Sequence record: OR539216.1
Length of the DNA: 41,822 nt
Reading direction: 5' to 3' (one strand)
DNA from: Escherichia phage vB-Eco-KMB41
In this document: piece after piece, positions 1,381 to 40,638 of the stretch
Layout of the letters: the number at the start of each line of letters is the position of its first letter
How positions within the stretch are numbered: the stretch's first letter is position 1
Program-made: the position numbers and the translations under genes
The notes under the pieces: model-generated
Databases searched by the model: none
What the model was told of the DNA's origin: nothing
What the model saw: only the letters and a program-made list of their open reading frames with translations

Positions 1381-1409
1381 AAAGGGCCTTTGCGGCCCTT
1401 TCTTTTTTC
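1381..1409 (+). terminator. Rho-independent terminator (AAGGGCC-loop-GGCCCTT + T-run)
   Basis: GC stem-loop followed by TCTTTTTTC directly after the 1046..1357 stop. Confidence 0.7.
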
Positions 1410-1455
1410 ATTTACCCTTTTAGCGTTCACTCACTTGTTAAAAGGGATCCCTCCA

Positions 1456-1809
1456 ATGTCTGAGCATACGACGCTATGGCAATTATTCCAGCTATACCGC
1501 GTTGAGTTGGGTTATTCATTCATCGCGGCATCGGTGGCGGTGTTCCGTCACTGGCAATTGCGCCACCCGTTCCGCGATATCGTGAGCGGCGGGGCTATCT
1601 GCGCTGCTGTCGCTTTCGGTATGAATAATATTTTATCCTTCTTCGGGGTCGATCATGGAACGTGGGGTTATCTGGCCTCCGTGTTCCTGGGCTACGTTGG
1701 CGTAGAGACTGCGCTCGACTGGGCCAGCGAAAAGATCCCATTCCTGAAAAAAATCCGCGCCACTCCGGCGCACACTGCAAACGAGGATCAGACCGATGGC
1801 AAAATTTGA
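1456..1809 (+). CDS. holin, lambda S-like
   Basis: Hydrophobic protein with predicted TM segments; C-terminal part (YLASVFLGYVGVE...KK) resembles lambda S; sits immediately upstream of and overlaps the endolysin. ATG at 1456 preferred over the TTG at 1390 that lies inside the terminator. Confidence 0.8.
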   Translation: MSEHTTLWQLFQLYRVELGYSFIAASVAVFRHWQLRHPFRDIVSGGAICAAVAFGMNNILSFFGVDHGTWGYLASVFLGYVGVETALDWASEKIPFLKKIRATPAHTANEDQTDGKI

Positions 1810-2275
1810 AGTAACGCCACAGCGTAAGGCATTCCTGGACGCGATCGCCGTGGGCGAGGGGACCGATAACGGACGCCAGCAGACCAAAAATCACGGCTAC
1901 GACGTGATCGTGGGCGGCTCCCTGTTCTCCGACTATTCGAAGCATCCGAACCGCCTCGTAAAGCTGCCGAAGCTGGGGATCAATTCAACCGCCGCCGGGC
2001 GTTACCAGCTTTTGAGCCGCTACTATGACGTGTACAAAAAACAGCTTGGACTCCCGGACTTCTCTCCAGCCAGCCAGGACCAGATCGCGCTCCAGCAGAT
2101 CAGCGAGCGTAAAGCGCTGGAGGATATCGACGCGGGCCGGATCAAAGACGCCGTGAAGAAATGCCGGACCATCTGGGCCTCCCTGCCCGGCTCCCCATAC
2201 GGTCAGCGAACGGAGACTTTCGACGACTTCCTGGGCTACTTCCGCGCCGCTGGCGGTAAGGTTGCCGACGAATGA
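1796..2275 (+). CDS. R: endolysin, lambda R-type lytic transglycosylase
   Basis: Translation aligns along its length with lambda R as recalled (QRKAFLD..EGTDNGRQ.T.NHGYDVIVGG.LF.DYS.HP...GRYQLLSR..D.Y.KQLGL.DFSP.SQD..ALQQI.ER.AL..ID.G.I..A...C...WASLPG). Confidence 0.95.
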   Translation: MAKFEVTPQRKAFLDAIAVGEGTDNGRQQTKNHGYDVIVGGSLFSDYSKHPNRLVKLPKLGINSTAAGRYQLLSRYYDVYKKQLGLPDFSPASQDQIALQQISERKALEDIDAGRIKDAVKKCRTIWASLPGSPYGQRTETFDDFLGYFRAAGGKVADE

Positions 2276-2793
2276 TCGCCGCCCTCCGGTTGTTCCTCTC
2301 GACTCACTGGCGCGTCGTGCTGCTGGCTCTTGTCGTGCTGCTGGCGCTGGGGGGATCTTTCTGGGCTGGCTCGGCGTGGACCGATCGGGGCTGGACCGCT
2401 CGCGACAATGCTCGGATCGCGAAGGAATCCACCCAGGAGGCGAACGCACAAGCCGCCGCCCGTATCATTGAACAAGGCCGGGCCATCGCCCGCGAGGAGT
2501 CCGTAAAATATGCGAACGCACAAGCCGCAAAAGCTCGCGCTGATTCTGCCGCTGCTGGCGCTGCTCTTAATCGGTTGCTCGAACGAGCCAGCAAGGAAGC
2601 CGCCAGACGCGAAGCCGCTGATCAGACCGCTTCCCTCGGAAGGGCGTCAGGGGAAAAGACCGCCCGAATGTATTCCGAGTTGCTCGAAGGGACTGGAAAG
2701 ATCGCTCGACGGTATGCTGATATAGCGGAGAAGGCGATCACCGCCGGGGAGGTGTGCGAATTGAACTACGACGCGGTAGAGCGTCAGCAATAA
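2272..2793 (+). CDS. Rz: i-spanin (Rz-like)
   Basis: N-terminal TM segment then long Ala/Arg/Glu-rich helical periplasmic domain; follows endolysin with overlapping start; contains an embedded +1-frame lipoprotein ORF. Confidence 0.8.
   Translation: MIAALRLFLSTHWRVVLLALVVLLALGGSFWAGSAWTDRGWTARDNARIAKESTQEANAQAAARIIEQGRAIAREESVKYANAQAAKARADSAAAGAALNRLLERASKEAARREAADQTASLGRASGEKTARMYSELLEGTGKIARRYADIAEKAITAGEVCELNYDAVERQQ
2510..2725 (+). CDS. Rz1: o-spanin (Rz1-like outer-membrane lipoprotein), embedded in Rz
   Basis: Signal peptide with lipobox LLIGC and Pro-rich mature part, wholly inside the Rz gene in another frame. Confidence 0.8.
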   Translation: MRTHKPQKLALILPLLALLLIGCSNEPARKPPDAKPLIRPLPSEGRQGKRPPECIPSCSKGLERSLDGMLI

Positions 2794-2795
2794 GT

Positions 2796-2820
2796 AAGGG
2801 GCCAGAAGGCCCCTTTTTTA
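2796..2820 (+). terminator. Rho-independent terminator (AAGGGGCC-AGAA-GGCCCCTT + T-run)
   Basis: Perfect 8-bp GC stem and T5 tract right after the Rz stop; also closes the convergent minus-strand gene. Confidence 0.8.
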
Positions 2821-3624
2821 TGCTGCCGGGTTGACCGTGACCGTACAGACGGCGGAGGTAACGGTGTTCGGCGCGACGGTGTTCGAACTGGTGGCAATAC
2901 AGCGGTATTGACCAGCGTCCCCGGTCGCCGGGCTGGCAACGTTCAGCGTTGCGGCGGTAGCCCCGGAGATGTTCGTCCAGGAGGTCCCGCCGTTCGTGGA
3001 CTTCTGCCACTGGTAGGAGTACGGCGCGAGGCCCGTCGTGGAGTTTACCGCGATCGACAAGCTGGCTGCGGTCCCCACGGTCCAGGTGGCGGTCGCCGGG
3101 AGGTTGGTCGAGAGAGCGATCGCTGGCTTGGTACGCTCGCGCAAGCTCTCGGCGGTCTGGCCCGCGCTGTCGGTTACGCGGCAAAAATAATCGCCGTTGT
3201 TCCCTGCTGCGTACCCGGTGATCGTATACGTCGGGGAGTTCGTCCCCACTGGGTTGTCGGTGCTGGATGCCCGGCGAAACCATGCGTAAGTATACGGCGG
3301 GACGCCACCACTCACGGCGACCGTGAACGTCTTGTTACTTCCCAGTGGGATATAACTCGCCCCGGCGTCGTTGGCGTTGTTACCCGGTAAATTTTGGGTA
3401 AACACGATCGGCGGGACCAGCGCCGGATCCAGTTCGATGTAAAACATTTTCGTGGGGTCCAGGTTGGACGGTTCACTGTCCAGCCAGATCACATCCTTTT
3501 GATGGACCTTGCTCGGATCAAGGATTCGCGTCACTTTCCAGCCCATCAGGTCGGCGCGGCGGTAACGATGCCAATAAGCCATAATTTTGTCCTCGTGAAA
3601 TTGTGCGGTATACTGCCCCGGCAT
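2818..3624 (-). CDS. Ig-like domain protein (two tandem Ig-like repeats)
   Basis: Two ~80-aa repeats sharing PPYTYAW/APYSYQW and GDYFC/GQYRC motifs typical of Ig-like folds; N-terminal ~90 aa unrelated. Alternative start at Met15 (about 3582) has a better SD (GAGGA). Confidence 0.75.
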   Translation of the reverse strand: MPGQYTAQFHEDKIMAYWHRYRRADLMGWKVTRILDPSKVHQKDVIWLDSEPSNLDPTKMFYIELDPALVPPIVFTQNLPGNNANDAGASYIPLGSNKTFTVAVSGGVPPYTYAWFRRASSTDNPVGTNSPTYTITGYAAGNNGDYFCRVTDSAGQTAESLRERTKPAIALSTNLPATATWTVGTAASLSIAVNSTTGLAPYSYQWQKSTNGGTSWTNISGATAATLNVASPATGDAGQYRCIATSSNTVAPNTVTSAVCTVTVNPAA

Positions 3625-3651
3625 TGTAGATCATCTCTGGCGTTAAAACGA

Positions 3652-3683
3652 AAGGAGCCGCTTTTTAAGCGGCCCTTTTTTTT
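3652..3683. terminator. Terminator hairpin (GCCGCTT-loop-AAGCGGC) flanked by A- and T-runs
   Basis: Stem-loop with T9 on plus side and T-rich tract on minus side; lies between two minus-strand genes. Confidence 0.6.
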
Positions 3684-3783
3684 AGAGTACCATCGACACG
3701 CCGAAACCGATTAAAGCCCACAGCGCGGCGCTGGCTGCGATTACGCCCCATATAACGTATTTACTTCCGCGTAAGTCAGTCAT
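3682..3783 (-). CDS. small hydrophobic peptide (33 aa, single predicted TM helix)
   Basis: Unlisted small ORF MTDLRGSKYVIWGVIAASAALWALIGFGVSMVL; its ATG overlaps the TGA of 3780..4172 (ATGA coupling) and it ends at the terminator. Confidence 0.35.
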   Translation of the reverse strand: MTDLRGSKYVIWGVIAASAALWALIGFGVSMVL

Positions 3784-4172
3784 GATATTTTCCCCTCTCT
3801 TTTGAATTTACCCAGGCGCCCGCGAATGGATGCCTTGCTCTTGTTCAACCACTGCCCGACCTGCTCGTGGGTCAGGTCTGCCCGCGTTACCTCATGAAGC
3901 CCGGTAGCCTGAGCGATATCAAGAACGTCGTCCGGCGTCAGTTCATCCACCCAGAAGCGGATCAGCTTCTTGTCCTCGTCAGTGGTCCACCAGCTATAGG
4001 TCCGGCGGTGAGCCAGTGAAACGCCCAGCTTGGACGCTCGGACTTGCATCTGGCGGAAGTTACGCCCGATCAGCTTCGCCAGGTCATGCGCTGGCATCGT
4101 CCCCGCCAGCTTCTCCAGTTCTAAATCTTCCTGCCCGGTCCATCCGATCCGGGTTGCGTTCTTTTTAGCCAC
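3780..4172 (-). CDS. hypothetical protein (130 aa)
   Basis: ORF with GTG start preceded by AAGGAGG SD; no recognisable motif. Confidence 0.65.
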   Translation of the reverse strand: MAKKNATRIGWTGQEDLELEKLAGTMPAHDLAKLIGRNFRQMQVRASKLGVSLAHRRTYSWWTTDEDKKLIRFWVDELTPDDVLDIAQATGLHEVTRADLTHEQVGQWLNKSKASIRGRLGKFKREGKIS

Positions 4173-4443
4173 GTTTGCCTCCTTTGAGGTGCTTCCGGTT
4201 TTTGGTGTCGGCGATCGCGTTCTTGAGATCGTTCTTTCCGCCTTTGGTCCCCGGAACGACGCGCCAGTGATGCGGGTCCGGGTTGTTCAGGTACATCTCG
4301 CCGTCCGGCGTCTCGATCGATATGTCCGCGATCGCCTCCTTGCCGAACACGCGGGAGACTGCGCTGATCATGCCGTCCAGTTCGGCGGCTTGCGCCGCCT
4401 CCCATAACTCCCGGCGCGTTGCCTTAATCGGCCCCGTAGCCAT
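4165..4443 (-). CDS. hypothetical protein (92 aa)
   Basis: ORF in co-directional array with short overlaps; basic C-terminus. Confidence 0.6.
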   Translation of the reverse strand: MATGPIKATRRELWEAAQAAELDGMISAVSRVFGKEAIADISIETPDGEMYLNNPDPHHWRVVPGTKGGKNDLKNAIADTKNRKHLKGGKRG

Positions 4444-8255: not shown

Positions 8256-8320
8256 CTTGCCCTCCGTTTCTTTCGCGGTTACTATAAATCATGCTTTAGT
8301 GATATTACAAGGGATAAACA

Positions 8321-37780: not shown

Positions 37781-37799
37781 TTTAGCAATTCGTGCTATT
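37781..37799 (-). promoter_or_regulatory. Palindromic box site 6 (TAGCA-ATTCG-TGCTA, perfect)
   Basis: Followed about 22 bp downstream (minus sense) by TAATAT, then GGGCG-loop-CGCCC hairpin and the ATG at about 37707. Confidence 0.55.
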
Positions 37800-37977
37800 T
37801 ATCCTTTCTCATTCGTCGGAGTGATCGGACCAGATCGACGACGGCCCAGCCAGACGCCAGCAGGAACGGCGCGAGGACCGCCAGCTTTTCCCAGTTGGTC
37901 AGGATCGTGTCGGTCCCCTTCGTCATGCCGATCCAGGCTATCACCAGGACCTCGTAAGCGAACGCGAGCCAGATCAT
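37795..37977 (-). CDS. small membrane protein (60 aa)
   Basis: Two hydrophobic segments and basic C-terminus RSLRRMRKDK. Confidence 0.5.
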   Translation of the reverse strand: MIWLAFAYEVLVIAWIGMTKGTDTILTNWEKLAVLAPFLLASGWAVVDLVRSLRRMRKDK

Positions 37978-38982: not shown

Positions 38983-40638
38983 TTAAAAGTCGTTCAGATC
39001 GTCGTCCTGATCCTCCGCTTTTGAGGATGGTTTCCAGTCCGTCGGGAGTGGCTTCTGATCGCGGATTCCACCCAGGAGCGGAGCCGCTTCTTTCGTGGCG
39101 GTCAGCGTCTCGTCTCCGGCGACCTTGATGATCCCCATCGTGTTAGTGGCGTGAAGGAATGCGCGACGGAATGCCGTCTTGTCGATCTGCGGGTCCGCGC
39201 TGTTCCGCGCCCACTCACTGAGCGCCGCCTTTGTCAGCTTCGGAGTGCGGCCTCTGCGCTTGCTGTTGTACTCGTGGACGAAGTTCACCAGTCGGATCGC
39301 GTTCTCCTCCTGCTGGCTGCGCTTCGGCCCCTCGTCGGCCTTCTCCTCCTTGTCGCCAGTCGGTACAGCCTCCAGCGCGTTAATGACGACCAGCGTCCCC
39401 AGGTTGTCGCCAATCTCCCACGCTGCCGGGTTCTGCTGCGCTTCGGGGCGTACTGGCTTCATGCGGGCCATTGCCTCGCGCTTCATCTTGACCAGTTCAG
39501 GCGGGAGCGGGACGGATTGCGTCCGCATGGCGCGAGGAGGGAGGAGCGCACAGCCTTTCGCCTTCGTGTGCTCAATGACAAAAAGCTCCTTGTCCTTGCA
39601 CTTCTTCACCATGATCTCGAATCCGGCGTTTGCCCGGAGGGTTGACGCGCCACGAGCGCCGCGCTCGGTGTCCTTCCCGGTGTGGTGGATCACCATCACG
39701 GCACAGTTGAGCATTTCCGCCAGCTTCGCCGCGTTCGCCATCAGGATCGCCGCCACGTTGTTGTCGTTCTCGTTGAAGTCCTGCCCGCCTACCCATTCGA
39801 TCACCTTGCCGTCCGCGTCACGCTTCGCGGTCTGGCCCACCTTCTGGCCCGCGCTGTTGGCGCTGTAGGTATCAATGACCACGAGGGCCGGTGCGTTCTC
39901 CTCAATGCCGAAGAACGGGGAGGAGAGGACCTTCCCGGCGAAGCGCTGGAGGATCTCCGCGTTATGGAGGGGGACCTGTTCGCCGATGATAAACAGGTTA
40001 TTCAGATCCTTGTTGCCGTTGCGCTTGTACTTCCATCCCGCGTAACGTTCACGGACGCCGCTCGCATCCTCCGGCGCGAAGTACAGGACGGATCCCTGTC
40101 GGACCGGAAGCCCGGCGAAGTCGATCCCGGTGGCGACACAAATCGCCATCTGTAACGCGCAAAAAGTCTTTTTAGCGCCCGACTCGCCGACCAGGAAGCC
40201 CACGGAGCGCTCCGGGACCAGCGACTGGATCACATAGTTAACGGGGGTGATTTTGTTCCCGGCGCGTAACTTGTCCAGGAACTCGTCCGGCTGGTCTGCC
40301 AGCAGTTCGGCGATCGCCTTCTTGTCCTTCTCGCGCTGGTCCTCTGTCGTCTCGCTGCGTGGCTTCGCGACGGGCTTCTGGTTCTCGTCCAGTACGAGGT
40401 CCCACTGGTGATCGTCCTCATTGTCGCCGAACGCGTAAAGCTCCATCTCCGCCAGTGATAGGCCCTGCTCTGCTGCCTGGTCTGCCGCGATCGCCATCTG
40501 CTGGTCCATGTCCGCCTCTGTCGGCTCCGGCGCTGCGTTCAGCCATTCCGGGACGGGTTCCAGACGAGCCTCGCCTGGGAGGATCTGGTCCAGTAGTTCC
40601 TCGCGGGTCGGTTCCTGCTGTTCTTCGTCGTGCATCAT
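38983..40638 (-). CDS. RecA-fold ATPase of the AAA_25/RepA-like type (putative replication initiator or helicase), 551 aa
   Basis: Walker A GESGAKKT, Walker B LVVIDTYS, downstream VMVIHHTGKD motif typical of RepA-like ATPases; acidic N-terminal ~130 aa; flanked on both sides by GGTTAC repeat clusters. Confidence 0.75.
   Translation of the reverse strand: MMHDEEQQEPTREELLDQILPGEARLEPVPEWLNAAPEPTEADMDQQMAIAADQAAEQGLSLAEMELYAFGDNEDDHQWDLVLDENQKPVAKPRSETTEDQREKDKKAIAELLADQPDEFLDKLRAGNKITPVNYVIQSLVPERSVGFLVGESGAKKTFCALQMAICVATGIDFAGLPVRQGSVLYFAPEDASGVRERYAGWKYKRNGNKDLNNLFIIGEQVPLHNAEILQRFAGKVLSSPFFGIEENAPALVVIDTYSANSAGQKVGQTAKRDADGKVIEWVGGQDFNENDNNVAAILMANAAKLAEMLNCAVMVIHHTGKDTERGARGASTLRANAGFEIMVKKCKDKELFVIEHTKAKGCALLPPRAMRTQSVPLPPELVKMKREAMARMKPVRPEAQQNPAAWEIGDNLGTLVVINALEAVPTGDKEEKADEGPKRSQQEENAIRLVNFVHEYNSKRRGRTPKLTKAALSEWARNSADPQIDKTAFRRAFLHATNTMGIIKVAGDETLTATKEAAPLLGGIRDQKPLPTDWKPSSKAEDQDDDLNDF

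Follow-up and report, generated by a model that had tools for sequence, protein, structure and literature searches.

Small membrane proteins encoded by phages are numerous and almost entirely uncharacterised, and the few that have been studied act as precise inhibitors of essential envelope machinery. Several described systems are comparable in scale or setting to the locus examined here. MgrB, AcrZ, MgtS, KdpF and CydX are proteins of fewer than 50 residues that have one transmembrane (TM) helix and dock onto a larger membrane protein. Type I toxins such as TisB, Hok, Ibs and Ldr are hydrophobic single-helix peptides of 19-50 residues. SAR and pinholin helices are rich in Ala, Gly and Ser, and the superinfection-exclusion proteins T4 Imm and P22 SieA are early accessory inner-membrane proteins of 80-160 residues or more with several TM segments. 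In a Staphylococcus aureus phage, the early small membrane protein PhiNM1 Gp11 binds MurG and DivIC (PMC11237401).

Here, we analysed a short hydrophobic open reading frame (ORF) in a complete podophage genome of the Murrayvirus group (~41.8 kb). The whole stretch of 41,822 nucleotides is referred to as the window. Based on gene anatomy, conservation and structure prediction, the ORF almost certainly represents a real protein-coding gene, and its product is predicted to be a membrane helix with one conserved face.

A 33-codon gene between a putative regulator gene and a terminator

The closest relative of the window phage is phage ST231 (90% identity), followed by IME_EC2, Lumpael, sortregn and sortsyn, and more distant relatives include the Sortsnevirus phages IME279, sortkaff and Sortsne as well as Kosakonia phage Kc237. 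On the minus strand, positions 3783..3682 read ATG ACT GAC ... CTC TAA, with the stop codon at 3682..3684, and encode MTDLRGSKYVIWGVIAASAALWALIGFGVSMVL. An earlier note on this DNA had described a 33-codon hydrophobic ORF at this place (3682..3783) that overlaps the stop of the preceding gene and ends at a terminator; translation and hydropathy bear out the ORF, and both of its borders were found as described. At the 5' border, an ATGA at 3780..3783 (-) combines the start codon (ATG, 3783..3781) with the stop codon (TGA, 3782..3780) of a 130-aa gene. A Shine-Dalgarno (SD)-like GAGGGG is located 8 nt 5' of the ATG (3792..3797, -), within the conserved ...EGK codons of the upstream gene, and is kept in all relatives. 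At the 3' border, an intrinsic terminator (3645..3675, -), consisting of a hairpin at 3655..3675 and a T-tract, closes the leftward operon and begins 6 nt past the TAA. The hairpin has 9 bp including 6 GC pairs (GGGCCGC-TTAAAAA-GCGGCTC, then CTTTCGTTTT; 3675..3645), and the folding energy of the region is -24.7 kcal/mol (z = -3.7 versus shuffles). It is preceded on the 5' side by an A-tract, so that it also scores as a plus-strand terminator and is bidirectional. In the relatives, the start junction is either ATGA or TGATG, and the distance between stop and hairpin is 5-7 nt across all loci.

A filter for small hydrophobic ORFs, which required a start at ATG, an SD-like motif, a length of 20-60 codons and a hydrophobic stretch of 18 residues, was passed by only two ORFs in the entire window of 41.8 kb, one of them being 3682..3783. 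The other SD-preceded ORF, at 37795..37977 (-), encodes 60 aa with two predicted TM segments (MIWLAFAYEVLVIAWIGMTKG...).

The 33-codon ORF is the final gene in a leftward unit, whose start lies close to a sigma-70-like site at 8310..8281, and no minus-strand terminator was found between this site and 3675. This unit encodes primase-like, methyltransferase and RusA-like proteins together with small unknown proteins. Its adjacent cistrons commonly overlap, by 8 and 20 nt in the two cases just upstream of the ATGA junction. The coupling to the upstream gene by overlap, as described in the earlier note, is upheld; the junction is not special in this operon, however, and since neighbouring cistrons overlap too, the ATGA alone does not tie the peptide functionally to the protein encoded upstream. 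We also considered a frameshift or read-through product that would fuse this protein to the TM helix. It was rejected, since a slippery heptamer is lacking and the two frames are offset by -1 in genomes with ATGA and by +1 in those with TGATG.

The upstream gene (3780..4172, -) encodes a putative tandem-helix-turn-helix (HTH) regulator of 130 aa, which matched PHROG_323 ('transcriptional regulator, D5-like') with E = 3e-18. Its AF2 model contains seven helices and shows two three-helix bundles (pLDDT 79). Foldseek searches of BFVD matched this model to phage HTH proteins (1e-5 to 1e-3) and, more weakly, to Myb-like and GcrA-like proteins (~1e-2); nothing significant was found in PDB by either sequence or Foldseek searches. 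By sequence, the regulator is clade-restricted, with 29 clusters that are all at least 49% identical. When viral contigs were scanned with the single regulator protein, no match was obtained, whereas an alignment-based scan did recover loci.

Downstream of the peptide-gene terminator there is a conserved box that resembles a promoter, CCAGAGATGATCTACAATGCC (3620..3640, -), and after it comes a Hoc-like gene with an Ig domain (2818..3624, -). A second bidirectional terminator (2796..2815) separates this gene from the lysis cassette, which is convergent and lies on the opposite strand (1390..2793). This cassette comprises a lambda-S-type holin of the PF05106 family (1390..1809), an endolysin, Rz (DUF2514; 2272..2793) and, out of frame inside Rz, an Rz1-type o-spanin ORF (2510..2725, +) of 71 aa that is Pro-rich and has the lipobox LLIGC. 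The embedded Rz1 ORF is easy to overlook in annotation.

Several further observations concern this region. Because the Hoc-like gene is bracketed by bidirectional terminators (2796..2815 and 3655..3675) and is absent in the loci L022, L023 and L025, it appears to behave like a moron-type cassette. The first ATG of this ORF (3624) falls inside the promoter-like box, and an in-frame second ATG at 3582, which has a GAGGA 7 nt upstream, is the likelier start; annotation is inconsistent in this respect, the first ATG being used in the Lumpael RefSeq record and the second one in sortregn. Antisense to the 5' end of the Hoc-like gene there is a sigma-70-like site, TTGTCC-16-TATACT (3587..3614, +), a transcript from which would stop at the plus-strand terminator (3657..3673) after ~60 nt. 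In the Logan contigs L022 and L025, the box CCAGAGA...CTACAATGC...CAGTATA is retained after the terminator (L022 1960..2040) without the Hoc-like gene; it runs antisense into Rz/Rz1 and may be either a remnant or an antisense promoter. Compared with IME_EC2 (L002), the regulator gene shows 66% nucleotide identity and the adjacent peptide gene 93%, and the terminator and promoter box read identical in the printed sequences. This suggests a mosaic boundary in 3645..4172, with recombination in or beside the regulator gene.

The earlier note had called the ORF unannotated, which is correct for the 60-aa ORF track used at that stage but not for the databases. The identical peptide has been deposited as AZF88773.1 and YP_009816958.1 (both Lumpael gp26), QHR68034.1 (sortregn_12) and WPJ70595.1, all labelled "hypothetical protein", and the close variants sortsyn_19, ST231 ORF48 and sortkaff_25 are annotated in the same way. 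On the other hand, the 33-codon ORF is absent from the annotation of the IME_EC2, IME279, Kc237 and Sortsne records. Together, Lumpael gp26, sortsyn_19, ST231 ORF48 and sortkaff_25 form a Murrayvirus/Sortsnevirus cluster of 33-aa proteins, defined by the same length, at least 67% identity and a location between the 130-aa gene and the terminator. The window peptide belongs to this cluster: it is identical to Lumpael gp26 and sortregn_12, shares 67-94% identity with the other members, and its synteny was confirmed.

Profile searches of Pfam, PHROGs, NCBIfam and PADLOC with the peptide returned no family at E <= 0.1 to 1. A phmmer search against 1.84 billion cluster representatives yielded a single match, a 33-aa close relative with 69% identity, and tblastn against the phage collection gave no match, presumably due to low-complexity masking. 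The literature on these phages consists of genome descriptions, in which we found no expression or proteomic data. In summary, the gene is already in databases as a hypothetical protein and is a clade-restricted gene for a small predicted membrane protein.

Conservation and distribution of the gene

To examine the conservation of the ORF, we used 35 loci that have the upstream 130-aa gene, which were collected from GenBank phages, IMG/VR, JGI/ENA metagenomes and Logan assemblies. An intact small ORF was present at the junction in all 35 of them, in 20 distinct nucleotide versions that encode 14 distinct peptides. In 29 loci it was the 33-codon form, whose length was always 33 codons, with zero indels and zero stops, and in the other six, which come from divergent relatives, it was a different hydrophobic ORF of 25/26 codons. 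The earlier note had proposed conservation in relatives as a check, and the ORF was intact in every relative examined and never disrupted.

In the frame of the 33-codon ORF, dN/dS ranged from 0.15 to 0.39 (Nei-Gojobori), whereas in the other two frames it was >1 for most pairs and lower only in a few Sortsnevirus-side comparisons. In divergent pairs dN was smaller than dS, with Fisher p values of 1e-4 to 1e-2. Third codon positions accounted for 23 of the 45 variable columns, and the replacements within the 33-aa peptide were conservative and hydrophobic. With a dN/dS of 0.20-0.46 for the regulator gene, constraint on the peptide ORF is comparable or stronger. In addition, gene callers predicted the 33-codon ORF on at least 10 assembled contigs. 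It is therefore almost certain, as far as sequence comparison can tell, that 3682..3783 is a real protein-coding gene.

The alternative ORF was found in L022, L023, L024, L025 and L028, in which the regulator is 50-54% identical. Here, the junction carries a 25/26-codon hydrophobic ORF, MIVVKCVVFGVLWCIAGWLAMSYLG or MMLLKCVLFGAVWGFIGWAAMTFIQ, which is coupled via TGATG or ATGA and followed by a terminator, and which has a dN/dS of 0.27 (p = 0.02). We tried to relate the two forms by HMM comparison, which gave 0.6 bits (43% of shuffles were as good) and 6.5 bits (1.1% of shuffles). Homology is not demonstrable on this basis, and the 33-aa and 25-aa forms are treated here as probable positional analogues. 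The 25-residue form does not have the LRG motif present near the N-terminus of the 33-aa form, so that, if both forms share one job, this motif would not be essential. In the same clade, a 65-aa protein with two hydrophobic segments is encoded just upstream of the regulator (L022 1307..1504, +), where it replaces the 92-aa PHROG_2817 protein of the window (4165..4443).

Some other relatives have no ORF at this position, among them the sister phages Kc166B and C130_2, in which the terminator directly follows the regulator stop. Kosakonia phage Kc166B contains a 170-aa regulator homologue and a Hoc-like gene but no small ORF, and in Hungariovirus C130_2 and Stutzerimonas phage STP9 the stop of a "D5-like" regulator abuts the same terminator (GGGCCGCAAAACGCGGCTCCTTTCGTTTT), with a Hoc-like gene next. 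The absence of the ORF in these three phages implies that the peptide gene is a clade-specific accessory gain. It appears that ~100 nt were gained between the regulator stop and the terminator and that this slot has been filled by two types of peptide, in which case C130_2 would represent the empty site in its ancestral-type state. Elsewhere in its early region, Kc166B (L031) encodes an annotated 37-aa protein with an N-terminal TM segment and a basic C-tail (MAGLIIMFIFGVVAGVGGTVVLGYVRNLERQARKGGE; 40219..40332, -).

The predicted membrane helix and its possible role

Structure prediction by AF2 without an alignment gave one continuous helix comprising residues 4-32 (pLDDT 90.8). The product can be divided into a polar, net-basic N-terminus, MTDLRGSK (codons 1-8; 3760..3783, -), in which L4-R5-G6 is invariant, and an Ala/Gly/Ser-rich helix up to the C-terminus (codons 9-33; 3685..3759, -), which was assigned as a TM helix from conservation, hydropathy and the AF2 model. 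Residues 9-33 have a mean Kyte-Doolittle (KD) value of 1.98 and consist of Ala, Gly and Ser to 44-52%. The C-terminus reads ...GVSMVL, and no residue past K8 is charged. The single helix and the hydropathy agree, as predictions, with the small single-TM peptide suggested in the earlier note. On the other hand, a simple sum on the Hessa scale rates the segment as marginally hydrophobic (+0.1 to +0.5 kcal/mol), which means that stable membrane insertion is not certain. Considering these data, it is quite likely that the peptide is a membrane helix. According to the positive-inside rule, by which a basic flank stays cytoplasmic, the N-terminus would be cytoplasmic and the C-terminus outside.

Judged by eye, the peptide does not resemble a Sec signal peptide: A17-S18-A19 is AXA-like, but the hydrophobic stretch that precedes it is ~8 residues long and 14 hydrophobic residues would be left behind it. 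The single continuous helix of the AF2 model also counts against a cleaved signal peptide. Neither a Cys nor a lipobox, as expected for spanins (Rz1-type o-spanin or u-spanin), is present in the peptide.

Column counts and helical-wheel conservation were taken over 22 distinct peptides. They revealed an invariant or near-invariant stripe with 3-4-3-4 spacing, W12-A16-A19-A23-G26-S30, to which I15, W22, V29 and L33 can be added. The conserved positions occupy one side of the helical wheel (~240 to 100 degrees), and the variable positions 13, 21, 24, 28, 31 and 32 are opposite. A conserved stripe of small residues is a classic signature of tight packing between TM helices. With one predicted TM helix, fewer than 50 residues and a conserved face, the product has the features of a small single-pass membrane modulator, although a small-residue face of this kind would fit self-association into a pore equally well as docking on a partner.

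We propose that the peptide gene is a genuine accessory gene for an inner-membrane micro-protein and that it would be expressed as the last cistron of a leftward early/middle operon, which carries DNA-metabolism genes and the putative regulator. Translation would occur via re-initiation or from the ORF's own SD at the ATGA junction, and transcription would end at the terminator that follows the peptide stop. We infer that the peptide inserts as one helix, with its basic end, MTDLRGSK, on the cytoplasmic side and its C-terminus facing the periplasm, and that the invariant face W12-A16-A19-A23-G26-S30 docks against a TM helix of another protein. The partner would most plausibly be either a protein of the inner membrane that is conserved in enterobacteria or the machinery with which incoming phages span the envelope. 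Its activity might be altered during infection, which would amount to host take-over or superinfection exclusion. A modulator that acts by helix packing on another membrane protein is a tentative reading, to which we give slightly less than even confidence, and on inference we prefer it to a lysis protein or a toxin of the type I kind.

A more specific version is improbable: the two apparently unrelated peptides (33 and 25 aa) may fill the slot as "traptamer"-like TM inhibitors of a conserved inner-membrane protein of Enterobacteriaceae. If this were true, they might for example block the P22-type DNA-ejection conduit, in which case the peptide would be the smallest known superinfection-exclusion factor, or, as another example, a division or peptidoglycan enzyme.

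Proximity to the lysis genes raises the question of whether the peptide could instead be a lysis-timing accessory, i.e. an antiholin or a holin-like or pinholin-like helix that tunes the triggering of the lambda-S-type holin (1390..1809). The peptide gene is ~0.9 kb from the convergent cassette, and in L022 and L025, which have no Hoc-like gene, it stands tail-to-tail with Rz across one bidirectional terminator. Moreover, its Ala/Gly/Ser-rich TM segment is reminiscent of SAR and pinholin helices, and there is a weak match to TMD2 of pinholin S21 (VSPSQWAAIGVLGSLVL; 47% identity over 17 columns, hhalign P = 0.0011, probability 21%). However, the peptide gene is located in a different and apparently earlier transcription unit, which has its own terminator and lies on the strand opposite to the cassette, and the cassette already has all its parts (a PF05106 holin, an endolysin, Rz and the embedded Rz1). 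No co-variation is seen either, as the holin is almost the same whether a phage carries the 33-aa or the 25-aa form, and Kc166B, which lacks the peptide, has a holin of the same family. The peptide also has no charged hydrophilic C-terminal tail, and no holin was recovered with it by phmmer (1.84 billion representatives) or from profile libraries. All these make a function in lysis timing unlikely. The earlier note had named membrane-targeting toxins or modulators as possible roles for such small phage peptides. A type I-like toxin (TisB, Hok, Ibs), which would oligomerise via the small-residue face, depolarise or permeabilise the inner membrane and thereby shut down the host, would fit the small hydrophobic nature of the product (33 aa, one helix, mean KD 1.98 for residues 9-33), and oligomerisation would be consistent with its size, its one helix and the conserved face of Ala and Gly. 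Such a toxin is nonetheless rather improbable, given that no antisense or antitoxin RNA signature was detected, that Rfam gave no match at the gathering score, and that the peptide ends without a charged or amphipathic segment. On the plus strand, a single promoter-like site was seen (3587..3614), and transcription from it would stop at the plus-strand terminator without reaching the ORF, although a scan for consensus motifs counts as weak evidence. Strong depolarisation would also be at odds with expression from an early/middle operon, given that a virulent phage depends on an energised host for its replication. A non-coding RNA as explanation of the locus was rejected separately, with no Rfam family at the gathering score.

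The constant neighbourhood of the regulator could be taken to mean that the peptide is its dedicated partner, which would keep the tandem-HTH protein tethered to the membrane, or sequestered there, in an anti-sigma-like manner and time the early-to-late switch. Indeed, the peptide is the next cistron, coupled by ATGA or TGATG, in 35/35 loci, even where the type of peptide differs. We nevertheless hold such a partnership to be very doubtful: few residues would be cytoplasmic (8 for the 33-aa peptide, ~5 for the 25-aa one), cistrons of the leftward operon commonly overlap anyway, the regulator homologues of Kc166B and C130_2 manage without a peptide, and the differing frame offsets exclude a regulator-peptide frameshift fusion. 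It is also conceivable that the peptide is functionless, either because translation up to the terminator is all that matters, for termination or for read-through into the Hoc-like gene, or because the ORF is spurious. The stop is 5-7 nt from the hairpin in all loci, and, considering the size of the ribosome footprint, a terminating ribosome would cover the 5' arm. What makes this highly improbable is that purifying selection acts on the amino-acid sequence (dN/dS 0.15-0.39, Fisher p down to 1e-4), that the unrelated-looking ORF in the same slot again encodes a hydrophobic helix, and that C130_2 uses the same terminator without an ORF.

The peptide provides a clean testable case, combining strong purifying selection with a defined conserved helix face. 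The natural empty-site relatives (C130_2 and Kc166B) and the replacement peptide in the same slot offer a convenient experimental system, and the host is easy to handle, as sortsyn, sortregn and Sortsne are E. coli K-12 phages. A target, if found, could uncover a so far unrecognised weak point in the inner membrane of enterobacteria. At present, what follows in practice is mainly that the annotation of IME_EC2, IME279, Kc237 and Sortsne can be improved, and otherwise this is an ordinary hypothetical small gene.

Comparison with known systems

In scale and in having a single helix, the window peptide corresponds to MgrB, AcrZ, MgtS, KdpF and CydX; those proteins are chromosomal, and no homology to them was seen in the phmmer search, whose single match was a close relative of the peptide. 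The type I toxins differ in gene organisation, as the peptide is encoded at the distal end of a long operon and not by a stand-alone, tightly repressed gene, and there is no sequence similarity. The pinholin S21 68 of Escherichia phage 21 shows a local resemblance, in that its TMD2 matches the C-terminal half of the peptide (WAAIG..SL.L) and both are Ala/Gly/Ser-rich. However, the pinholin has two TMDs and a charged C-terminal tail, its gene belongs to a lysis cassette, the matched helix has the opposite predicted orientation, and the similarity is not significant database-wide (phmmer, 1.84 billion representatives).

T4 Imm and P22 SieA are bigger than the window peptide, have several TM segments and share no sequence similarity with it. 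The window phage itself has P22-type ejection proteins ("DNA transfer proteins"), which a superinfection-exclusion protein could block. PhiNM1 Gp11 differs in its Gram-positive host, in having experimentally shown targets and in the lack of any sequence relationship, and it is comparable by description rather than by size or architecture. It is a precedent for the reading favoured here, being a small phage membrane protein that is encoded among early genes and binds host envelope enzymes, with an accessory function in host take-over such as is proposed for the window peptide.
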